A stretch of DNA of 64,000 nucleotides, taken from Actinomycetes bacterium (GTDB taxonomy: Bacteria; Actinomycetota; Thermoleophilia; RBG-16-64-13). The position numbers were made by a program, and so were the translations under genes. The notes below the pieces were generated by a model. The model had not been told where the DNA came from and did not search any database. It was given only the letters and a program-made list of their open reading frames with translations. The stretch spans positions 76,408-140,407 of the forward strand of contig JAGXFW010000022.1 of assembly GCA_024637035.1 (NCBI GenBank). The letters run 5' to 3'. Positions 44,654 through 56,178 of this stretch are shown here, in pieces (the first letter of the stretch is position 1; the number at the start of each line of letters is the position of its first letter).

Positions 44654-45094
44654 CTACAACGCCCGCGCCGCCTCGATCGCATTGGACGCCATTCTCCGCG
44701 TCAGCTCGAGAGTAGCGCGACGCTCGTCGTCAGTGAGACCGTTCAGCAGGCTTTCCAGTGCTTCGTGAACGATCCCCTCGAGCTCCGGCTTAATGTTCCA
44801 GCCCAGGTCGGTCAGGAAGATGCGGTAGTAGCGCTTGTCGCTGGCGTCGGTTCTTCGGTTGACGTAGCCCATGGCCTCGAGCTTGTTGACGGCTCCCACC
44901 GTGGCCGACTTGTCCACGAGGAGACGATCGCTCAAGCTCTGCTGGGATTGTCCGTCGTCCTCGTAGAGGGCGAGCAAATAGGGGTATTGCCCAGACCCGA
45001 TGCCGAGGTATTCGAGTCTACGCGCCGAGTACATGATCAGGTGGCGCCATGCCACCGAGAGGTGCCGAACGATGTTGTCTTCGAGTTCGTTCAT
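44654..45094 (-). CDS. MarR-family regulator
   Basis: GQSQQSLS, VDKSAT, LEAMGYV, DKRYYRIFLT. Confidence 0.9.
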   Translation of the reverse strand: MNELEDNIVRHLSVAWRHLIMYSARRLEYLGIGSGQYPYLLALYEDDGQSQQSLSDRLLVDKSATVGAVNKLEAMGYVNRRTDASDKRYYRIFLTDLGWNIKPELEGIVHEALESLLNGLTDDERRATLELTRRMASNAIEAARAL

Positions 45095-45180
45095 CTGTGG
45101 ATCGAGCACCTCCGATGGCTGGCTTGACGCCCCAATAATAGAACAACCCGCCGGGGTGCAACCAGCCGGCGCAACGTTGA

Positions 45181-45225
45181 ACTGCCCGCCGGGTACAGCC
45201 GACAAGGCCGAACCCGGCGGGCAGT
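45181..45225. terminator. 14-bp stem hairpin after aldehyde dehydrogenase
   Basis: ACTGCCCGCCGGGT / ACCCGGCGGGCAGT. Confidence 0.65.
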
Positions 45226-45232
45226 CGAGGAT

Positions 45233-46678
45233 CTAGAAGGGGAAGTGTCTCTGCCCCTTCTGGAAGGTCACCCATTTCACCTCGGTGAGCGCGTCCATGG
45301 AGGCCTTGCCGCCTTCTCGTCCGTAGCCGCTGCCTTTGACGCCTCCGAAGGGGGCGTTGCACTCGTCGTGGACGCAGGCGTCGTTGATGTGCACCATGCC
45401 GCTCTCCAGGCGTTCTGCGACGTAGAGCGCGCGCTGCATGTCGTTCGTGATCACCCCGCTTGAGAGACCGTAGACGCTGTCGTTGGCTACCTCCACCGCC
45501 TCATGCACGTCCTTCACGGCGATGATCGGTGCGACGGGCCCGAAGGTCTCTTCCTGGAAGATGCGCATGTCTCGCGTGACTCCGGACAGCACGGTGGCGG
45601 GGTAGTAGGGGTCGTTGCGCTCGCCCCCGCACAGAACCGTGGCCCCTCCGAGGACGGCATCTTTGACCTGTCCGTCGATGAGATCGAGCTGACCCGAGTG
45701 GATGATAGGGCCGATCACCTCTCCCATCTTGAGGGTGGCGGCTTTTGCAGCCAGCTTCCGGGAGAATTCCTCCGCGATCGGCTCCTCCACGATGATCCGC
45801 TCCGCGGACATGCAGATCTGTCCTTGGTGCATGAAGGCGCCGAAGCACACCGCGTCAACGGCGTAGTCGAGGTCGGCGTCGGCGAGGACGATCACGGGGT
45901 CCTTGCCGCCCAACTCCAAGATGACCCGCTTGAGATTGCGCCCGCACCTTTCTGCGATGTGGCGCCCCACCTCGGTGGAACCCGTGAAGGTCACGAGTTT
46001 GATGGCGGGATGATCGAGCAGAGCCTCACCCGCGACGGAGCCCTTGCCGGGTACCACGTTGAGAACGCCTGCCGGTAGGCCGCTGTCGTGGAATATCTCC
46101 GCGATCTTGAGGCCCGAGACGGGTGTGTCGCTGGCCGGCTTCAGCACCACGGTATTCCCGGCGATCAGCGCGTGAGCCACCTTCTTGGTCGCGAGAAGCA
46201 GCGGGAAGTTCCACGGTGCGATCGCCGCCACCACACCGAGTGGCTGGCGCAGGGTCATGCTGAGCTTGTCCGGTTCGGAGGAGCCGAAGGTCTCGCCCGT
46301 TACCAGCTTGTAGTCCTCCGCCGCGGAACGCAGAAGGTTGACGGTGAACCCGGTCTCGAACATGGCCTTGCCGAACCAGCCACCGCCCTCTTCCACGAGG
46401 ACACCGGCGACCTCTTCCATCCGGGTCTCCAACGTCGCCGCGGCCCGGTAGAGATAGGCGGCGCGGGCGGGCCCGGTAAGTGCGGCCCACTCCGGCTGAG
46501 CGGCCTGGGCAGCTGCCACCGCGGCCGCGACGTCCTCCACACCACCTTCCGCCACCCGAGCGTAGGTGGATCCATCCAGCGGCCGCACGTCTTCGGAGTA
46601 GCCCCCGTTGGCGGCAGGGCTCCATTGTCCGTCAATGTAGAGCTCGTACTGCTTGGCAGTCACGTCAATCGCTTTCAT
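45233..46678 (-). CDS. aldehyde dehydrogenase (benzaldehyde/vanillin-type)
   Basis: PWNFP, FTGS, LELGGKDP, FMHQGQICMS, EETFGP, PFGGVKGSG. Confidence 0.9.
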   Translation of the reverse strand: MKAIDVTAKQYELYIDGQWSPAANGGYSEDVRPLDGSTYARVAEGGVEDVAAAVAAAQAAQPEWAALTGPARAAYLYRAAATLETRMEEVAGVLVEEGGGWFGKAMFETGFTVNLLRSAAEDYKLVTGETFGSSEPDKLSMTLRQPLGVVAAIAPWNFPLLLATKKVAHALIAGNTVVLKPASDTPVSGLKIAEIFHDSGLPAGVLNVVPGKGSVAGEALLDHPAIKLVTFTGSTEVGRHIAERCGRNLKRVILELGGKDPVIVLADADLDYAVDAVCFGAFMHQGQICMSAERIIVEEPIAEEFSRKLAAKAATLKMGEVIGPIIHSGQLDLIDGQVKDAVLGGATVLCGGERNDPYYPATVLSGVTRDMRIFQEETFGPVAPIIAVKDVHEAVEVANDSVYGLSSGVITNDMQRALYVAERLESGMVHINDACVHDECNAPFGGVKGSGYGREGGKASMDALTEVKWVTFQKGQRHFPF

Positions 46679-46726: not shown

Positions 46727-47941
46727 CTACGCCCATGGGGGCGGCCCGTCGCCCCACGGGGGCGGTCCGTCACCCCAGGGAGGAGGTCCGTCACCCCAGG
46801 GGGGCTTGCCACCGGCTCCGAACGGCGGCGGTTCGTCACCCCACGGCGGCTTACCGCCTGCCCCTTGTCCTGGAGTCGGCGGTTCATCCGCGCCTTCAAA
46901 CGCAGCAGCCGGTGCGGCCGGGCGTTCCCCGCGCTCGTAGTTGGAGCGGCCCACGTAGAATTCGTCGTCGGGTTGCCTCGTCGCGATGCCGATCATCATG
47001 TAGGCCATCTTGGTCTGCTCGATCTCGTGCTGGTGTAGCTTGAGAGACGGTTGCCGGGTGAGTCCGCCGTTGCCTCCGACGCACCACTGATAGAACTTCT
47101 GCTGGGTCCAGTGGTAGGTGCCGATCATCTGGGTGGCGGCGAACTGCTGTTCGAAGATCACGCGAGCCGGGGTGAGCTTCCAGTAGATCTCCATCCCCTC
47201 ATCCCACTTGCCCTCGCGCAGGAGGCGGAAGTAGTCGACCAGGTAGGGCTTGTCCGGTGACTGAAACACCTCGTAACATCCCGCTCCCATCCACTGCTGG
47301 CCGAATCCCGCGACCATCATGGGCAGCATGCGTTCCACCGGGTTGTTGATGAGCACCTTGTCGCCGAAGCGACGGTGGCAGTCTGTCGCCATGCCCGGCT
47401 CGCCGATCTTGGCGGCCACCACGTTCGGTAGGTCCGCAAGACGCTCAAGCACATCGAGCGGGAACCCGCTGTTGTGGAGACGCTGGAAGTTGTAGTGGGG
47501 GCTCGGGTAGAGCGTGACGGCCAGGTCGGTCGATTCGATGAGTTCCGTGCTGTAGGCGAGGATCTCATCCCCGGACTTCGCGTAGAAGTTGGCCGGATAG
47601 CCCAGGAGGACCGCGTCGACGCCCACCGCCGCGGCGTGGGCGAGCATGGCCCGATTCTGGGCGGCCGAGTCGAAGAGCAGCGTTGTCGAGACGAGGATCT
47701 CGTCCTTGGCCTCGTCGGCCACGATCGCGACGAAGCGCTTGGCTTCGTCGAACGTGAGCCCGGTCTCGGTTGCGACCAGCGTGGAGAAGAACCCATGTTC
47801 TTTGCTCTTCTGCACGTCCCAACGGATGCCGGTCTCGTCGAGTTCTGCGAGATCAGGAGTGAACGAGGGGAAGATGCAGTTCTCCACCCCCACGAGGTTC
47901 TCCTTGGCCCATTGCTTCAGTTCCGCTTTGCTCACCTTCAT
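46727..47941 (-). CDS. DHDPS/NAL-superfamily hydratase-aldolase-like protein with C-terminal PPWG repeats
   Basis: PSFT..LDE.GIRWDV, Tyr in TLYPSP, Schiff-base Lys in VVAAKIG; Pro/Trp repeat tail. Confidence 0.8.
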   Translation of the reverse strand: MKVSKAELKQWAKENLVGVENCIFPSFTPDLAELDETGIRWDVQKSKEHGFFSTLVATETGLTFDEAKRFVAIVADEAKDEILVSTTLLFDSAAQNRAMLAHAAAVGVDAVLLGYPANFYAKSGDEILAYSTELIESTDLAVTLYPSPHYNFQRLHNSGFPLDVLERLADLPNVVAAKIGEPGMATDCHRRFGDKVLINNPVERMLPMMVAGFGQQWMGAGCYEVFQSPDKPYLVDYFRLLREGKWDEGMEIYWKLTPARVIFEQQFAATQMIGTYHWTQQKFYQWCVGGNGGLTRQPSLKLHQHEIEQTKMAYMMIGIATRQPDDEFYVGRSNYERGERPAAPAAAFEGADEPPTPGQGAGGKPPWGDEPPPFGAGGKPPWGDGPPPWGDGPPPWGDGPPPWA

Positions 47942-48031
47942 TGCGTCCGCTCCTTTTTCGCTCCATCGTCGGCAGGCATGCAGTGCACCCGGCTGTGCTT
48001 CAGTGATGCGTCGTTCGTGTGTCGTTCGCGC

Positions 48032-48361
48032 CTACTGGTCCAGGAACCGGCCCGTCCTGGCCTTCTCCACGATCTCGTCCAATCGTCCCTCGGTATGTAC
48101 CCCCAGTTGCTGCGCCCTGAGTTTGGCCGCCAATCCGATGTTGCGGGAGTCCCGGTAGAACTCCGGATCTCTGGCCCTCGAGGGGTCGAAGTCCGTCAAT
48201 CGAGACCTTTCGCTCCGGTGCGTGGCGAAGCTCGAGAACCTGCGGGTCACGTCAGTTGCGCCGCAGGCCGGGCAGCGCGCGCCCACACCGTCAACCGGGT
48301 GGCGTGCGAAGTGGTCGAACGCGCGGCTGCAGGTGGTGCATCGATACTCATAGATCGGCAC
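48032..48361 (-). CDS. FmdB-family zinc-ribbon protein
   Basis: [11 protein letters not shown]...CPACG. Confidence 0.9.
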
Positions 48362-48397
48362 TGATCCGCCCCCTTTCGGTCACGTCGTCGGGCACGA

Positions 48398-49918
48398 TCA
48401 CCCCAGATCGGCAGGGTCGTCCGATCCGGTGGGCAGTGGGGGAGGGGAGGCCGGCGTTTCCGTGGGCATCGTCCCTGGAGGCATCCCTGGAGGCATCCCT
48501 TCAAACCCTGGCGGCATGCCGGGGGGCATCATGCCCGGGGGCATCATGCCGGGAGGCATCATGCCGGGAGGCATGCCTGGAGGCATCGCGCCGGGAGGCA
48601 TCCCCGGAGGCATCATGCCGGGAGGCATCATGCCGGGAGGCATGCCTGGAGGCATCGCGCCGGGAGGCATCCCCTCCATGCCCGGCATCCCGGGCATCCC
48701 AGGAGGGCCCGACTGTGGCTGCAGGAAGTTCATCATGTGCAGCCGCAACATCTGGCCGGTTCCGTCGCACGGGTATCCGATCCACGCGTCGCAGAGAAGC
48801 TTTCCGGCCTGGTATTCCCGAGTGATTCCATACGATCCCAGGGTCTTCACTGAGCGCTCGGCGTTGCGGATGGCGGTGTCTACGGCGAACGTCTTGGCCG
48901 CCGGCGATTTGACCATAGCGGAGAAGTCGCCTGAATCCGCTGCGCAGGCGGCGTCCCACGTGATGAGGCGGGCGGCCTGAAGGTCCACCCACATGTCGGC
49001 GAGCATGCCGGCGATCGCCTGGTGCTTGATGATGGGCACGCCCCAGCTGATCCGCTGCTGAGCGTATTCGAGGGCATGCTCGTAGGCGGCGCGGGCGAGG
49101 CCCACGTGGCACGCGGCGAAGCCCACGCCGATGAACGGAAGCGCCTTGAACAGGAACAGCCCGAGACCGGCGCCGCCTCCACCCAGCTCGGCAGAAGCGG
49201 GAACGCGCACGTCGTCCAGGTAGACCTCGGCGTTCTGTGCGCTCCGCCACCCGATGAGCTCCGTGAGCTTACCAACAGTCAGTCCTGGCGTGTCGGCCGG
49301 CACGTAGAACACGCTCGTGCTCATCATGGGGGGAGCGTCTAAATCGGTGCGGGCCATGACGAAGTAGTGACTCGCCGCGCCGGCGTTGGTGATGAACGCC
49401 GACTTGGAGCCGTTGATCACGTATTCATCTCCGTCGCGGCGCGCCAGCGTGCGCATGCCCAGCTTGGGATCGGGATAGGGGCAGAGCGAGTCCGACCCGG
49501 CCTGGTCGGCTTCGCTTCCCGCACTGGCGAGCATGGCGGTGTCATTGGTGCACAACTCCCCCAACCAGGCTCGCTTCTGCTCCTCCGTTCCGCCCATCGA
49601 GATCATTACCGCGCCCGTGATCGTGACGTTGAAGTATGAGACGGCGATCCCCATGTCAACGGCCGCCAGCTCTTCCTGGAGCAGGACATTGTCCATGCAG
49701 GTGCCGCCCTGACCTCCGTACTCCTCCGGGATCAGCAAGGAGGTGAAGCCAAGCCCGGCTGCTTTCCGGTAGACCGGACGCACCTTGTCCCACGGCATCT
49801 CCTTGGTGCGGTCCATGCGTTCGATCTCCTCTGCGACCGGCCGGATCTCCTTGGCCGCGAAGTTCCGCGCTGTCTTGCGCAGAAGCTCCTGCTCCTCACT
49901 CAAACTCAGGTCGATCAT
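48398..49918 (-). CDS. acyl-CoA dehydrogenase family protein with C-terminal (MPPG)n tail
   Basis: [33 protein letters not shown]; about 105-aa Pro/Gly/Met tail. Confidence 0.85.
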
Positions 49919-50994
49919 TCCGCATTCCCCCCTTTGTCGCCCTCGGGCGCTTGTGGAAACCCGGTCTCACCCGCCGCCGGAGGACCCGCCTCGAAGTTGA
50001 CGCGCCCCACGAAGAACTCCGGGTCGGGCTCCCGTGGCTCGATGCCCACCATCCGATAGGCCATCTTCGCCCCCATCATCTGGTGCATGAAGAGACGGCC
50101 GGCGCTGCGCGGCAATCCTCCGTTCCCACCGACGCACCATTGGTAGTACTTGAACATCGCCCAGGGATAGAAGCCCTGCATGATGCCCATGATGTGCTGC
50201 CCAAACAGCCCGTACAGCGGCTGGATGCGCCAGTAGATGTCGACAGCCGCCTGGTAGTCCCCAGCCAGGAGCAGGTTGAACATGTCGACGACGTACGGCC
50301 GTTCCGGCGACTGCAGCATCTCGTAGCACGAAGCTCCGATCCACTGCTGGTCCATCCTGAGGACGGTGATCGGAGCCCAGTCCGACATGGTCACGTTCAC
50401 CAGGGCGTGCTCGGCGCAACGGGCGAAGCACTCGGCGATGAACACGGGATCACCGCTCCCGATCTTGACTCCCACCACGTTCGGGATCTTGGCTATCCGT
50501 TCCATTAGAAGCGGCGGGAAGCCGCTCGGGTGGAACCGCTGGAAGGCGAGGTTGCTTGTCGCGTAGAGCACGATGCCGATATCGGCGAGCCCGCACATGT
50601 CGCGCGTGACATCGTAGACCTCTTCCTCGCTCCGGGGCATGAATCCGGTCGGATAACCGAGCAGCGCAGTGTGGGCGCCCGCCTTGGCGGCGTGAGTGAG
50701 TAGTTCGTAGTTCTCGGCCAGAGAGTCGCGGAAGAGGGTGGTGGAAACGAGCAGGTCGTCCCCAGCCTCGTCCACCGCGATCTCCACGAATCGCTTCGCC
50801 TCCGCCATGGATAGATGCTGCTCCGCCGCGCACAACGTGGACGCGAACCCGTGTGCTTTCGCCTGCCGCACGTCCCAACGGATGCCGGCCTCGTCGAGCG
50901 CCGACATGTCATTCGTGAAGGACGGCAGGGTCAGGTTCTCCACCCCCCGCAGATGCTGCCGCGCCCAACCCTTGAGATCGCTCGACACACCCAT
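49915..50994 (-). CDS. second DHDPS/NAL-superfamily hydratase-aldolase-like paralog
   Basis: PSFT..LDEAGIRWDV, VLYATS, VVGVKIG, YQWCVGGNGG shared with 46727-47941. Confidence 0.8.
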   Translation of the reverse strand: MGVSSDLKGWARQHLRGVENLTLPSFTNDMSALDEAGIRWDVRQAKAHGFASTLCAAEQHLSMAEAKRFVEIAVDEAGDDLLVSTTLFRDSLAENYELLTHAAKAGAHTALLGYPTGFMPRSEEEVYDVTRDMCGLADIGIVLYATSNLAFQRFHPSGFPPLLMERIAKIPNVVGVKIGSGDPVFIAECFARCAEHALVNVTMSDWAPITVLRMDQQWIGASCYEMLQSPERPYVVDMFNLLLAGDYQAAVDIYWRIQPLYGLFGQHIMGIMQGFYPWAMFKYYQWCVGGNGGLPRSAGRLFMHQMMGAKMAYRMVGIEPREPDPEFFVGRVNFEAGPPAAGETGFPQAPEGDKGGNAE

Positions 50995-51023: not shown

Positions 51024-51150
51024 GTTGATAACTCAACCATGGATTGCTCAACGATAGGCGGTCAACGGGCCGCCGTCAAGCCCTTCTTGACCTTGACAAC
51101 CGCATACGCATGGTGCTATTAGTTGAGAACACAACGGTTGATGCTTCAAC
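51024..51150. promoter_or_regulatory. divergent promoter region with four GTTGA-N4-TCAAC operator-like palindromes
   Basis: Sites at 51024-51037, 51039-51052, 51122-51135, 51137-51150; TTGACA at 51093. Confidence 0.7.
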
Positions 51151-51213
51151 CGGTAGAAGATGTGTCGGGGCCGGCGAACGTCGGGGGACGAGGCTCCGAG
51201 ACAGGGGGGATCG

Positions 51214-52095
51214 ATGTCTGCGAATCTGTGGTTCCAATCGTTGCTGGACGGCCTGACATCGGGAGCCGTGTACGGTCTGATCGGCCTGGGCTTCGTGACC
51301 ATCTTCCGCACGTCGACCGTGGTGAACATGGCGCAAGGGGCCTTCGTGATGCTCGGCGCCCTGCTCTGCTACACGTTCCTCGTGGACTGGCATCTCCCGT
51401 ACTGGGGGGCCGGTGTGCTGGCCGTGGCCGCGGTAGTGATCGTAAGCCTGGTTCTGTACAAACTGTTGATCGCGCCTCTCATCACGATCTCACCGGTCAC
51501 CGTGGTGCTGGCCACGATCGGAGCGAGTCTGCTGCTCGAGAACATCGGTCTTCTCTTGTGGGGCGGCTACGCCAAAGCGCTCCCGCCGTTCTCGGGTGAT
51601 TCGCCGCTTCGTCTCGGGGGGACCGTCTTCATACAGCCCCAGTACCTGTGGGTACTTGGCTTGACCGCGGTGATGGTCGTCGTTCTGCACCTTCTCGGGA
51701 ATCGATCCCGCATCGGCAAGCAGATGACGGCCTGCGCCGACGATCCCGTGGCCGCCGGCCTAAGCGGGATCCACCCGGGCCGCATGACTCTGCTGGCGTT
51801 TGCGATCAGCGCTGTTGTCGGCGCCCTCGGCGGAATCAGCATCGCCTCGGTCTCGCCCATCTCCTACGTGTCGGGTGGGATGCTCGGTCTCAATGGGTTC
51901 GTCGCCGCGATCCTTGGGGGATGGGGCTCCAGCGCCGGAGCGATCGTCGGCGGTCTGACTCTCGGGATCGTAGAGGCGATGGCCTTCATGCTGCTGCCAG
52001 GAGGGTACAAGAGCGCCGTCGCCTTCGTGGTGCTTCTGCTGATTCTGTACTTCCGGCCTTCGGGCATCCTTGCCTCGCCTTTGACGGACGCGTGA
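51214..52095 (+). CDS. branched-chain amino acid-type ABC permease (LivH-like)
   Basis: GAVYGLIGLG, NMAQG, FVAAILGG. Confidence 0.9.
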   Translation: MSANLWFQSLLDGLTSGAVYGLIGLGFVTIFRTSTVVNMAQGAFVMLGALLCYTFLVDWHLPYWGAGVLAVAAVVIVSLVLYKLLIAPLITISPVTVVLATIGASLLLENIGLLLWGGYAKALPPFSGDSPLRLGGTVFIQPQYLWVLGLTAVMVVVLHLLGNRSRIGKQMTACADDPVAAGLSGIHPGRMTLLAFAISAVVGALGGISIASVSPISYVSGGMLGLNGFVAAILGGWGSSAGAIVGGLTLGIVEAMAFMLLPGGYKSAVAFVVLLLILYFRPSGILASPLTDA

Positions 52096-54863
52096 CCGTG
52101 TCGAGCACGGCAGCCACCGAGAAGCGGCTGGAGGTCTTCGATCGCGTCCGGTGGGCGCTCGTCGCGCGGCCGGTGGCACTCAAGTTCGCCCTCGTCGCCG
52201 TGCTCGTCCTGTGGCCTCTCGCCTATTCTTCCCTGTATGGGCTCAGCGTGATGACGACGGCTGGGCTCTACGTGCTCGTGGTGGTCAGTGTGCACGTGAT
52301 CCTTGGGGAAGCCGGCCAGCTCTCCTTCGGCCACGCGACCTTCTACGGTATCGGGGCCTACTCGGTGGGAGTGCTGGCGGTGAAGTACGGCGTGCCTACG
52401 TTGCTCTGCCTGGTCGCGGGAGCACTCATTGCTTCCTTGGCTGCGCTTGTCGTGGGCCGGCCCGTGCTTCGTCTGAAGTACTTCTACCTAGCTCTCGCTA
52501 CCATCGGCCTAGGCCAGATCTTCGCCGTGGTTGTGAGCCAGACCCCTTCACTCACGGGCGGAGCGATGGGCCTGGCGCCTATCCCCGACCTACGTATCTT
52601 GGGATACGCCTTCGAGGGCTACGAGAGTCGTTACTACCTCGTATGGGTCTTTGCCCTGCTGGTGCTGCTCTTCACGGAGAAGGTACTGAAGTCGCGCGTG
52701 GGGCGTTCCTTCAGGGCTGTCGCGACCAGTGAGACCGCCGCGGCCACTTTGGGCGTTCGGACCGCGAATTGGAAGCTACTGGCGTTCGTGCTGAGCGCCG
52801 CGTATGCGGGGCTTGCCGGCGGGCTGTTCGCCTTCGTCACCGGGGCGATCAGCCCGGCCTCCTTTTCGTTCAACGCAGCCCTGCTGCCGGTGATCATGAT
52901 GTTGGTGGGAGGTCGCAGTCTGTGGGGGGGAGTACTGGGAGCGATCTTGATGACGTGGCTGCTGAACGGGCTGTCGGGAGCCCAACAGTATTCGGGTCTG
53001 GTATACACGATCGTCCTTCTCTTGCTTCTCCTCTTCTTGCCTGCGGGCGTATCGGGAGGGTTGCGGCACGAACACCGCTCCTGGTTGCGCGCGCGGCTCG
53101 GGCTCTCTCGCGCGGCGGTCTCCGGTGTGCCTTCGCCAGGTGGCCCGGCCTCCGAGGCGGGTTCGCCCGCAGCCGGCAGTGCGCTTGTACCCGCGACCGG
53201 GGCCGTTGTGGGTCCCATGCGCCCCCCCTTGAGTGCGATTCCACAGGCGGCAACCGCAGTTGCGAGGAAGCGGAACGGATCGTCTGTTTCTCCTCTGCTC
53301 GAGATCCGAGGCGTCTCTGTGGACTTCGGTGGCCTCCGGGCCGTCAACGATGTCTCCTTGGTCGTCGTCGAGGGCAGCATCACTGCCATCATCGGCCCCA
53401 ACGGAGCGGGAAAGACAACGCTCTTCAACGTCATTACCCGCCTTCAACGCCCGACGACGGGGGACATCGTATTCGGCGGACAGTCCATCACCGGCGAGTC
53501 GGCGGCCGCGGCGGCCCGCCTTGGGATGGCGCGCACCTTCCAGAACCTGCGGATCTTCCCGAACATGACGGTCCTCGAAAACGTGTTGGTCGGCTGTCAC
53601 CGTCACGAGAGATCAGGGATCTTCGCCGCGGGGCTGGGACTCCCGAGCCAGCGAAGAGAGGAGCGACGTTCGCAGGAGCGGGCGCAGGAAGCGTTGGCCC
53701 TCATGGGCCTGGAAGAGCATGCCCATCTCCCTGCCGCCGCTCTGCCCTATGGTCGGCAGCGTCTTGTCGAGATCGCACGGGCGCTCGCCTCTCAACCCCG
53801 TCTGCTCCTTCTGGACGAACCGGCCGCTGGGATGAACGGGGCCGAACGGTCCGCGCTCGTCGAGCGCATAGCCGCCATCCGCGAGGAAGGGGTCACCGTT
53901 CTCCTGGTGGAGCACGATATTGAGTTAGTGATGGGCCTCTCCGATGCTGTGGTTGTGCTCGATCACGGGAGTCTGATCGGACAAGGGGCGCCTGAGCAGG
54001 TGCGCGCGGATCCAGCGGTCATCGAGGCCTACCTGGGCGTGCGTCGCGCTGAGGGGCACGACCGGACCCCACCGAGGGCGGTCCGTCCGGATGCGCACAG
54101 GCCCGACGGCTCCTCCGCTCCGTCGCCGCTCCTCGTCGTGGGGGACGTCCGCACGGCCTACGGTCCCATCGAGGCGTTGCACGGCGTATCTCTGGAAGTG
54201 CCGGAGGGTCAGATCGTTGCCGTTCTCGGGGCGAACGGCGCCGGAAAGAGCACGCTCCTCTACACCATATCGGGAGCGCTGAAGCCGACCGCGGGCAGGA
54301 TCGAGTTCGCCGGACAGGACGTGACGGGCCTTTCGGCACCCTCTGTCGCGAGCCTGGGGATCCGCCAGGTGCCGGAGGGGAGGAGGATCTTCACCTCTTT
54401 GAACGTGGAAGACAACCTGCTGATGGGTGCATCCGGTCGACCCGACCGGGCGGGATACGAGGACGATCTGGCGTTCATCTACGACCTCTTCCCGATCCTG
54501 GCCGAGCGCCGATCTCAGCCGGCCCGCACGCTGTCCGGCGGTCAGCAACAGATGCTTGCGATCGGCCGGGCCCTGGCCGGTGGGCCGCGCCTGCTGCTTC
54601 TGGACGAGCCCTCGCTGGGCCTTGCCCCACGCTTGGTGGAGCATATCTTCGAATCGCTCGTGAAGCTGAACGACCGGGGACTCACCATGCTCATGGTGGA
54701 GCAGAACGCGGAACTGGCGCTCTCGGTGGCCCACCACGCCGTCGTGTTGCAGACCGGCACTGTGGCACTGGCCGGGCCGGCGGCAGCGCTCCGAAGGGAC
54801 GATCGCGTGCGCGAGTGCTACCTGGGTCAGGTGGCGGAGCGCCCGCTGTCAGTCAGTAGATGA
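52092..54863 (+). CDS. fused LivM permease + LivG + LivF ATPases
   Basis: GQLSFGH permease; GPNGAGKTT...LPYG...DEPAAG; GANGAGKST...LSGGQQ...DEPSLG, all in one frame. Confidence 0.88.
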   Translation: MTVSSTAATEKRLEVFDRVRWALVARPVALKFALVAVLVLWPLAYSSLYGLSVMTTAGLYVLVVVSVHVILGEAGQLSFGHATFYGIGAYSVGVLAVKYGVPTLLCLVAGALIASLAALVVGRPVLRLKYFYLALATIGLGQIFAVVVSQTPSLTGGAMGLAPIPDLRILGYAFEGYESRYYLVWVFALLVLLFTEKVLKSRVGRSFRAVATSETAAATLGVRTANWKLLAFVLSAAYAGLAGGLFAFVTGAISPASFSFNAALLPVIMMLVGGRSLWGGVLGAILMTWLLNGLSGAQQYSGLVYTIVLLLLLLFLPAGVSGGLRHEHRSWLRARLGLSRAAVSGVPSPGGPASEAGSPAAGSALVPATGAVVGPMRPPLSAIPQAATAVARKRNGSSVSPLLEIRGVSVDFGGLRAVNDVSLVVVEGSITAIIGPNGAGKTTLFNVITRLQRPTTGDIVFGGQSITGESAAAAARLGMARTFQNLRIFPNMTVLENVLVGCHRHERSGIFAAGLGLPSQRREERRSQERAQEALALMGLEEHAHLPAAALPYGRQRLVEIARALASQPRLLLLDEPAAGMNGAERSALVERIAAIREEGVTVLLVEHDIELVMGLSDAVVVLDHGSLIGQGAPEQVRADPAVIEAYLGVRRAEGHDRTPPRAVRPDAHRPDGSSAPSPLLVVGDVRTAYGPIEALHGVSLEVPEGQIVAVLGANGAGKSTLLYTISGALKPTAGRIEFAGQDVTGLSAPSVASLGIRQVPEGRRIFTSLNVEDNLLMGASGRPDRAGYEDDLAFIYDLFPILAERRSQPARTLSGGQQQMLAIGRALAGGPRLLLLDEPSLGLAPRLVEHIFESLVKLNDRGLTMLMVEQNAELALSVAHHAVVLQTGTVALAGPAAALRRDDRVRECYLGQVAERPLSVSR

Positions 54864-54888
54864 TCATACACACCACAAGGGGGACATC

Positions 54889-56178
54889 ATGAGAGCAGGC
54901 AGGAGAAGACAAGGCCGGTGGGTCGTGCTGATCGCGGGCGTGCTCGCGGTGGCGCTGGGGGTCGCCGTACTCCTGGCGGGATGCGGCGGCACTGAAACGA
55001 CGACCACCACCACACCGCCGGCCACGGGGTCGGAGACCACCACCACTCCGACCACGAGCACGGAGCCGACGGCAGACGCACCTACGATCAAGATCGGGCA
55101 CCTCGACTCCATCAGCGGACCCGGAGCTGCAGCCGCGAGTTCGATCGTCGACGGCCTGGATCTGGCGGTGGAGAAGATCAACGCCGCCGGTGGCATCAAC
55201 GGGAGCATGCTCGAGATCGTGACCGTCGACGACGGCAGCGACATGGGCAAAGCCGCCGCCGGGGCCACCAAGCTGGTGGAGCAGGACAAGGTCACCGCCA
55301 TTCTGGGTCCGTTCGTGCCGCCCTTCGGCATGGCGGTGCGGCAGATCACGGAGAAGGCCGAGGTGCCGAATCTCATGTTCATTTCGGCGATGCCCGACGA
55401 TCTTGCCCAGCCTGGTGCGTGGACCTTCCACACCATCCAGACCTTCGATGCGAACGCAGCGGCGCTGCTCGGCATCGTAAGGGCTCACGGCTTCAAGAAG
55501 GTGGCGGCCGTGAGTGACCAGGTGCCCGTGCACGTGTTATCTCTCCAAATGCTGAAGGAAGAGGCTGCCAAAGAAGGCATCGAAGTGACGATCCTTCCCG
55601 ACACGTGGGAAGCCTCCGATCCGAACATGAACATGGGGCCTATCTCCAACAAGATAGCGGCCTCCACGAAGAGCGCCGATCCGGAAGCCCTGCTGCTTCA
55701 GGCGACCGCGCTGCAGGTCGGACAGGTGATGAAGAACCTGCAGACGCAGGGGATCACCGTCCCGATCATCGGTAGCCCGGCGGCGGCCCATCCGGTCCTC
55801 TTCGCCATGGGCCCCGAACAGGTGGAGGGTCTCATCGTGCCGGGCCCGGGGATGCTCGACGCGCACGCGCTGCCGGATGACTATCCCGGCAAGGACGTTC
55901 TCGTCGACTACTTCGACAGTTTCACGGCCAAGTTCGGACATCCCCCCGATTTCATGAGTGGGTACGGCTATGACGGCTTGTATCTGATCGCCGAGGGTCT
56001 GAAGACATCGGGCGACGACCGCGCCAAACTGCGAGACGCCATCGAGGGGATCAAGGGATTCAACGGTGTGCTCGGTCCTTTCAGCTTCTCGGCCACAGAC
56101 CACGTGGGCGTCCACGGCGGGTTCGTCGAGTGGAAGGTCGAAGGCGGGCGGTTCGTCTTCGTGAGGACGCTTGACTAG
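54889..56178 (+). CDS. ABC substrate-binding lipoprotein (Leu/Ile/Val-binding fold)
   Basis: Lipobox LAGC, Thr-rich linker, INAAGGING, GYDG. Confidence 0.88.
   Translation: MRAGRRRQGRWVVLIAGVLAVALGVAVLLAGCGGTETTTTTTPPATGSETTTTPTTSTEPTADAPTIKIGHLDSISGPGAAAASSIVDGLDLAVEKINAAGGINGSMLEIVTVDDGSDMGKAAAGATKLVEQDKVTAILGPFVPPFGMAVRQITEKAEVPNLMFISAMPDDLAQPGAWTFHTIQTFDANAAALLGIVRAHGFKKVAAVSDQVPVHVLSLQMLKEEAAKEGIEVTILPDTWEASDPNMNMGPISNKIAASTKSADPEALLLQATALQVGQVMKNLQTQGITVPIIGSPAAAHPVLFAMGPEQVEGLIVPGPGMLDAHALPDDYPGKDVLVDYFDSFTAKFGHPPDFMSGYGYDGLYLIAEGLKTSGDDRAKLRDAIEGIKGFNGVLGPFSFSATDHVGVHGGFVEWKVEGGRFVFVRTLD

Follow-up and report, generated by a model that had tools for sequence, protein, structure and literature searches.

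Why should two enzymes of one apparent catabolic operon both end in long, repetitive, proline-rich tails? We address this question for a 64,000-nt stretch of DNA (hereafter the window; positions 76,408 to 140,407 of contig JAGXFW010000022.1, assembly GCA_024637035.1) from an Actinomycetes bacterium of the Thermoleophilia, in which an acyl-CoA dehydrogenase (ACAD)-fold flavoprotein and a DHDPS-like protein (DHDPS-like A) carry such extensions. Our answer is tentative, and we give it a little less than an even chance: the tails would be selected, disordered, multivalent short-motif extensions that serve weak association between proteins and whose arrays grew here by tandem duplication. Few natural bacterial metabolic enzymes are known to be organised by disordered repeat tails, and this case offers two tailed enzymes in one operon, natural tail-less controls, and sequence evidence for a motif that is kept beyond composition. 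An earlier note on the same DNA had proposed that the tails co-assemble the pathway; that interpretation is partly supported, with neutral slippage now disfavoured and pathway co-assembly weakened.

The ACAD-fold protein (48398-49918, minus strand; 506 aa) consists of an enzyme core (residues 1-400; PF02771, PF02770, and PF00441) and a tail of about 106 residues past the fold (residues ~401-506; 48401-48718, minus strand). Very much as the earlier note had read it (about 105 residues with 14 MPPG), this tail contains 14 exact MPPG units, some in direct succession and others with A, M, or FEG between them, and closes with a non-repeat Pro/Thr/Asp end. DHDPS-like A (46727-47941, minus strand; 404 aa; PF00701, core at residues ~1-340) ends in a tail of about 64 residues (residues ~341-404; 46730-46921, minus strand) made of KPPWGD(E/G), PPPFGAG, and PPPWGDG units, and its translation bears out the five PPW and one PPF described before. 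The claim of a third tailed enzyme fares less well, as the second DHDPS-like protein (DHDPS-like B) has only about 25 Pro/Gly/acidic residues at its C-terminus (about 49918-49992), with no repeats. At the DNA level, tandem arrays cover 48513-48700 of the ACAD tail, including a 69-nt unit present 2.1 times with 97% matches (48530-48674), and a 21-nt unit is repeated 3.5 times in the DHDPS-like A tail (46732-46805). In an AF2 model of the ACAD built with 30 orthologs, residues 403-506 have pLDDT < 50 and no secondary structure. A collagen-like triple helix was considered and rejected, since it needs Gly at every third residue and the ACAD units (MPPG/MMPPG/AMPPG) have a period of 4-5 and the PPPWGDG units of DHDPS-like A a period of 7.

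Two public DNA runs from a single study, one of which may be the source, contain contigs that reproduce the region; no RNA run is listed as containing it. In both, a single contig covers the DHDPS-like A tail with 0 differences, and the ACAD repeat (48540-48645) is split in the run contigs into 63-66-nt pieces, one of them at about twice the flanking depth. This depth is consistent with two copies of the long ACAD unit, the exact copy number resting on the assembly. No tail length variants were seen in the public run contigs, which break inside the ACAD repeat, and two further public runs contain only the conserved parts, from relatives.

The two tails also stand out within the genome carrying the window (G000; P numbers below are listed orthologous proteins and L numbers other loci compared), which comprises 3.57 Mb in 34 contigs at 65% GC and is 100% complete by marker genes. 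Its LeuA places this genome in the Actinomycetota, near metagenome-assembled genomes of Thermoleophilia/Gaiellales. When 2517 crude gene models, which account for 78% of the genome, were ranked by the proline share of their last 40 residues, DHDPS-like A and the ACAD came first and second (0.40 and 0.33; genome mean 0.055, 99th percentile 0.175) and DHDPS-like B about 18th. By a hand estimate, the top two would fall no more than two genes apart with a chance of about 4/2516. A regular-expression scan of 23,761 stop-to-stop open reading frames (ORFs), each of at least 80 residues, found MPPG arrays in the ACAD only and the PPW pattern in DHDPS-like A plus one 91-aa Arg-rich ORF and nothing else; the search for other MPPG- or PPW-tailed proteins that the earlier note had proposed thus confined the pattern to the two enzymes, save for this one ORF. 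A DNA pattern of two nearby PPPG units, sought in G000 and nine tail-bearing genomes, revealed no 'PPPG-tail regulon', as its matches beyond the ACAD tails were mostly out of frame or lay in unrelated Pro-rich membrane or secreted proteins. Fourth for C-terminal proline is a 482-aa protein (G000:C21:27574-29019) with a Pro/Gly/Gln/Met end of about 80 residues that contains PPG and PGM; a Walker-type GPTGSGKST motif was read in it by eye.

Among 40 relatives of the genome, the best ACAD match reached 42% identity and no ortholog was found, so the cassette is patchy. Searches of large databases returned many orthologs at 50-92% identity from many phyla. We called a Pro/Gly tail where at least 12 residues had a P+G share of at least 0.4 and at least two PP. 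By this rule, 21 of the 115 complete orthologs among the 120 listed have Pro/Gly tails, 11 have other tails, most of which still contain PPG or PPP, and 83 have none. These 115 cores, 44 locus-derived ones, and the window's own were placed in a FastTree phylogeny of 160 rows, 43 of which (the window's included) bear a PP[PG] tail. On this tree, 14 changes account for the label, against a shuffle mean of 38 (0/500 shuffles as low), with 29 tailed rows in a 42-row clade (support 100) and none in a 63-row clade. As judged from the tree, a PPPG-type tail is an inherited trait of a large part of the ACAD subfamily, across phyla. Motif copy number among the relatives runs from 0 to 15 units. The tail in the window is the longest among the 160 rows, and its repeat structure indicates that tandem DNA duplication amplified it here beyond every other form seen. 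Loci with a tail cover 42.5-74.2% GC, and the GC medians are 0.650 for tailed (n = 22) and 0.627 for untailed loci (n = 97; Mann-Whitney p = 0.73), so the presence of tails is no by-product of GC.

Close orthologs without tails, or with unrelated ones, had been named in the earlier note as the sign of neutral slippage. Instead, P0001, the nearest ACAD ortholog (92% core identity), has a tail of 93 residues and P0122, the nearest DHDPS-like A ortholog (85% identical), one of 61 residues, both built from the same MPPG/MPPFGPGG-type units; the two proteins may come from different genomes. By these motifs, the tail of DHDPS-like A matches that of the ACAD in kind, both in the window's lineage and in a sister lineage. 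Among the C-termini of 118 complete members of its family (the window's included), 51 are short, 10 have a Pro-rich tail in which PPPG and PPPW/PPW elements recur, and 11 have another tail; an added domain of about 150 residues, assigned by motif and by eye, comes in two kinds (kind 1 in about 29 and kind 2 in about 17 of the 118). The family is thus strongly modular at the C-terminus. Domain-bearing members include P0123-P0131, P0134, P0147, L016:8004-9461, and L174:2875-4371, as well as P0143, P0151, P0158, and others. One kind-2 member has a precomputed AhpC-TSA match, and a Pfam scan of one member per kind returned only DHDPS.

Do the two tails go together? We compared 28 other distinct loci, each with a complete ACAD and a complete DHDPS-like gene. 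Where the ACAD is tailed (6/28), the DHDPS-like partner has a Pro-rich tail in two loci, an added domain in two, and nothing in two. Where it is untailed (22/28), no partner has a Pro-rich tail or an added domain, and 3/22 have short non-Pro tails. Elaboration of the DHDPS-like protein in 4/6 versus 0/22 loci corresponds to a hand-computed 15/20475 = 0.0007, with kinship ignored. In L093 and L094 (43% GC; gene order ALDH, DH, DH, ACAD), an FGPPP/FGPTP-type motif is present on both proteins. The expectation that the tails are conserved and co-occur in orthologs is therefore upheld as to heritability and this association, but not for the majority of loci, in which the ACAD has no tail.

The codons of the repeats carry a further signal. 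The 14 MPPG units show 14 codon differences from their consensus, in five distinct variants, and 14/14 are synonymous versus 25% expected, with each repeat unit taken as independent, yet duplication copies variants. The units of DHDPS-like A have 10 synonymous versus 5 non-synonymous differences, and spacer residues vary. Near-identical locus pairs were too alike to yield synonymous and non-synonymous counts in the tails. The codon comparison indicates that the MPPG motif cores are under purifying selection, and the pattern fits a motif of long standing, constrained at the peptide level, with a recent enlargement of its array.

ACADs, like DHDPS-fold enzymes, usually form oligomers. With a motif core of (M/F/G)PPPG on the ACAD and of PPPG/PPPW on DHDPS-like A, oligomeric enzyme particles would present several flexible, polyproline-II-prone arms bearing Met, Phe, or Trp. 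Because the tails are disordered, heritable, and motif-constrained and the enzymes probably oligomeric, we infer a role in multivalent weak association. The arms might serve as weak-binding modules between tail and tail, between tail and enzyme surface, or between tail and a reader or membrane surface. They would tune the location and company of the enzymes, not their catalysis, and the extreme repeat copy number here could provide higher valency or reach. The closest documented parallel found is CrtA, the spheroidene monooxygenase of Cereibacter sphaeroides; its disordered Pro-rich C-terminal extension, followed by a Gly-rich region, is reported to mediate association into high-mass complexes and to be dispensable for activity (PMC13488962). 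CrtA is, however, an unrelated enzyme in a membrane context, its abstract mentions no motif repeats, and it has no second tailed enzyme in its operon. The solved chains matched by the enzyme cores have no C-terminal tails of such kind, and literature searches for the gene combination and for Pro-rich C-terminal ACAD extensions yielded no account of these tails, the motif search being dominated by papers on the mRNA-cap 'GpppG'.

Several observations weigh against a role in weak association, and many of them would suit an alternative that we regard as possible, although on the unlikely side: that the tails are tolerated, a short ancestral Pro/Gly stub that slippage drives up and down and that is selected only for disorder or non-aggregation, as an entropic bristle or solubility tag with neither a specific partner nor a part in organising the pathway. 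CCT makes up 15/40 Pro codons in the ACAD tail versus 0/16 in the core. Together with the 97%-matched 69-nt unit, this skew implies that much of the present length of the ACAD tail is recent DNA duplication, and the synonymous and non-synonymous counts are then not independent events. DNA tandem repeats that spread an unusual codon by copying are what tolerated tails would leave behind; that the variation of the MPPG cores is exclusively synonymous is harder to reconcile with them. Tail length varies from 11 to 106 residues among tailed ACADs and sequences turn over fast, as is also expected of weakly constrained disorder, and the variable lengths, the many losses on the ACAD tree, and the full disorder of the ACAD tail in the model all agree with mere tolerance. 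So does the increase of tail length with GC (Spearman rho 0.48, p = 0.025, n = 22), although the motif is kept down to 43% GC.

The distribution of the tails cuts both ways as well. In 22/28 loci with both genes the ACAD is untailed, so most cassettes do without tails, and co-occurrence stands on at most 3-4 lineages. Many tailed ACADs lack a DHDPS-like neighbour within 5 kb, and in 5/5 searched genomes that encode a domain-bearing DHDPS-like protein an ACAD ortholog at E <= 1e-90 is missing. The shell and GYF_2 searches described below yielded no binding partner, shell, or adaptor, and the tail-less majority and the missing reader are both in line with tails that are tolerated. Tolerance does not readily explain why, in two lineages, two distinct enzymes of a locus share one motif flavour, or why the top two Pro-rich C-termini of the genome lie within one operon, and a pure solubility tag needs no Met, Phe, or Trp at fixed positions. 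If the tails were inert, they would still be well-documented examples of long-lived, selection-shaped low-complexity tails.

It is tempting to go beyond weak association in general and to propose short-linear-motif tethering, in which PPPG-hydrophobic/PPPW tails, long kept on the flavin dehydrogenase and copied onto its DHDPS-like partner, would join the oligomeric enzymes of an aldehyde-producing pathway without a shell. We consider this proposal rather doubtful. Its outcome would be a multivalent assembly or a temperature-sensitive condensate, with repeat number as an evolvable dial and the cold-spring actinobacterium of the window as the extreme case. Elastin-like and other elastomeric Pro/Gly-rich repeat polypeptides coacervate with temperature. 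Like the tails, they consist of short Pro/Gly repeats that include a hydrophobic guest residue, are rich in Pro+Gly, and adopt no fixed structure. They differ in being built of a VPGXG pentamer, versus units of 4-7 residues here, which sit on cytoplasmic enzymes. The link of the tails to this particular pathway is weak: neighbours of the tailed ACADs that lack a nearby DHDPS-like gene include a HisKA_2 kinase, a REC-ANTAR regulator, NmrA-like or cytochrome b561 genes, and a TonB receptor.

An effect at the level of translation seems improbable. Here, runs of EF-P-dependent pause motifs would make completion of the enzymes, and perhaps translation of the next gene, depend on EF-P or prolyl-tRNA. 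PPG, PPW, and PPP are among the strongest such motifs (PMC13602936), and the two tails together hold 15 PPG (14 MPPG and one GPPG), 5 PPW, and several PPP, but these would be present in any Pro-rich tail. The known regulatory cases of EF-P dependence involve one or a few motifs, in contrast to the C-terminal arrays of 5-15 in the window. Each tail stops shortly before the next gene, 36-48 nt downstream, as a gate would have it; the genes downstream of tailed orthologs differ, however (NmrA-like, cytochrome b561, FmdB), and the conserved aromatic or Met positions suggest a role at the peptide level.

The PPG-binding adaptors invoked by the earlier note could take the form of GYF_2 domains, the cytoplasmic N-terminal GYF_2 of membrane proteins binding PPG-hydrophobic motifs and recruiting the enzymes to the membrane. 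Such docking is very improbable. Candidates do exist in G000, where three ORFs have an N-terminal GYF_2 above cut-off (C30:127537-130266, C15:11991-14378, and C11:1518-4649), all of them large proteins. The domain, however, does not appear to track the tails: it was found in 2/9 genomes with tailed ACADs versus 2/15 without, absence being soft in metagenome-assembled genomes (MAGs). The literature found on GYF is eukaryotic work only. In eukaryotes, GYF domains recognise PPG with a hydrophobic residue after it, Trp being excluded (PMC6648886); the PPGM of the ACAD units resembles this motif, whereas DHDPS-like A uses PPW. Two of the three GYF_2 proteins, read by eye, continue with a hydrophobic stretch and then a long subtilisin-type peptidase-like region.

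Cargo loading into an encapsulin or microcompartment shell, which the C-terminal placement of the tails on oligomeric enzymes handling an aldehyde might suggest and whose targeting peptides are likewise terminal extensions, is close to refuted, because the lack of shell genes noted earlier for the window extends to the whole 100% complete genome (encapsulin, PF04454: 0 matches, control positive in 3/14 genomes; microcompartment shell, PF00936: 0 matches, pentamer family outside the search, control positive in 2/14 genomes) and the tails are repeats, neither one short conserved peptide nor an amphipathic helix.

What enzymes, then, do the tails extend? The three ACAD domains, N-terminal, middle, and C-terminal, occur in order at 103.4, 58.8, and 89.9 bits, all above Pfam cut-offs. 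Residues 5-393 match MCAD structures (E 3e-53), and the modelled core has pLDDT mostly > 90. The protein thus shares fold and domain order with MCAD-type acyl-CoA dehydrogenases but has Asp in place of the MCAD Glu, reading CDGT (Asp385) where the MCAD structure 3mdd reads YEGT. Across 30 orthologs, Cys384 and Gly386 never vary, and conservation of Asp385 is at least 90%. The Glu of the YEGT motif we take to be the catalytic base, and Asp385 could serve as the base in its stead.

DHDPS-like B (49915-50994, minus strand; 359 aa from the ATG at 50994) and DHDPS-like A are 47% identical to each other and match PF00701 at 32.4 and 32.7 bits, respectively, versus a cut-off of 22.1, with about half of the profile covered. 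The open frame of B extends to a TTG at 51051, and its alignment to A begins at the ATG at 50994 (residue 20). A profile of 29 DHDPS-like sequences matches DHDPS structures at E 4e-12. In the alignment with 2rfg and 2yxg, Lys178 of A falls on the Lys of VGVKDA / AVKEA and Tyr145 on the Tyr of VYNIP / LYNVP; the former position is Lys in 25/29 sequences and Glu in 4, the latter Tyr in 29/29. We take Lys178 to be the Schiff-base Lys and Tyr145 the conserved Tyr of DHDPS. The pair shares the core fold of the DHDPS/NAL class I aldolases but is remote from them (32-33 bits) and has no named equivalog: for the named enzymes DapA, NanA, KdgD, and HpaI-like, the best scores were 19-36 bits versus equivalog cut-offs of 278-397, and the ESM Atlas returned only 'DHDPS family' names. 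The label 'aldolase' given to the pair before is thus putative: both proteins retain the Lys and the Tyr, but neither scores above a curated equivalog cut-off.

Both DHDPS-like proteins and the ACAD belong to a run of six tightly packed minus-strand genes in the order DHDPS-like B, ACAD, FmdB zinc ribbon, DHDPS-like A, aldehyde dehydrogenase, and MarR. The FmdB-family zinc-ribbon protein that had been placed in the middle of the run (48032-48361, minus strand; 109 aa) is confirmed by PF09723 (Zn_ribbon_8; 47.6 bits versus 34.4) and TIGR02605 (50.9 versus 31.3). All four Cys of its N-terminal CxxC...CxxC ribbon are invariant in 7 orthologs, and its orthologs are 42-49% identical over all 109 residues. 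FmdB directly adjoins the ACAD, downstream or upstream, in six other distinct loci (L096, L101, L174, L176, L180, and L182), and it stands beside the ACAD even in loci without a nearby DHDPS-like gene; it is probably an accessory protein of the ACAD.

The NAD(P)-dependent aldehyde dehydrogenase (45233-46678, minus strand; 481 aa; PF00171, 545 bits) starts 48 nt downstream of DHDPS-like A and falls below every NCBIfam equivalog cut-off. The run ends with a MarR-family regulator recognised by Pfam (44654-45205, minus strand). No ETF gene adjoins the operon. Since neither a CoA ligase nor a CoA transferase was noted among the six genes, the ACAD may act on something other than an ordinary acyl-CoA. 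DHDPS-like B, the Asp-type ACAD, FmdB, and DHDPS-like A together are a conserved, uncharacterised four-gene cassette in many phyla, accompanied by an aldehyde-oxidising enzyme and a transporter. In the window, the transporter is a divergent ABC transporter of the branched-chain-amino-acid type (51160-56178, plus strand), made up of a permease, an ORF that combines another permease with two ATPase domains, and a Peripla_BP_6 binding protein. The frame at 51648-54863 (plus strand; up to 1071 aa), with its branched-chain-type permease and two ABC ATPase domains, is either a permease-ATPase-ATPase fusion or separate genes merged by the ORF listing.

The exact order DHDPS-like B, ACAD, FmdB, DHDPS-like A recurs in a Firmicutes MAG (L180, 1259-10403), where a sodium:solute symporter flanks the cassette and an aldehyde:ferredoxin oxidoreductase lies a few genes downstream. 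A Desulfobacula MAG (L016, 431-9461) has DHDPS-like B, ACAD, ETF alpha, ETF-QO, and DHDPS-like A, and also a DUF1329 protein. Given the ETF genes and aldehyde-oxidising enzymes in such loci, the cassette pathway plausibly involves an ETF-linked dehydrogenase and passes through an aldehyde, and the differing aldehyde and electron modules fit a catabolic route with an aldehyde product.

Clustering of the neighbours of tailed versus untailed ACADs enriched lineage markers (HisKA_2, REC-ANTAR, and NmrA-like), with no evident reader among them. In Pseudomonadota (L114:3127-7382, L183:3031-6930, and L190), a HisKA_2 kinase and a REC-ANTAR protein precede the PPPG-tailed ACAD, and an NmrA-like or cytochrome b561 gene follows it. 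The HisKA_2 kinase of L183 has weak GAF matches under the Pfam cut-off, and in L114 a TonB-dependent receptor lies upstream of the tailed ACAD. This HisKA_2/REC-ANTAR neighbourhood is a different, conserved context for a tailed ACAD.

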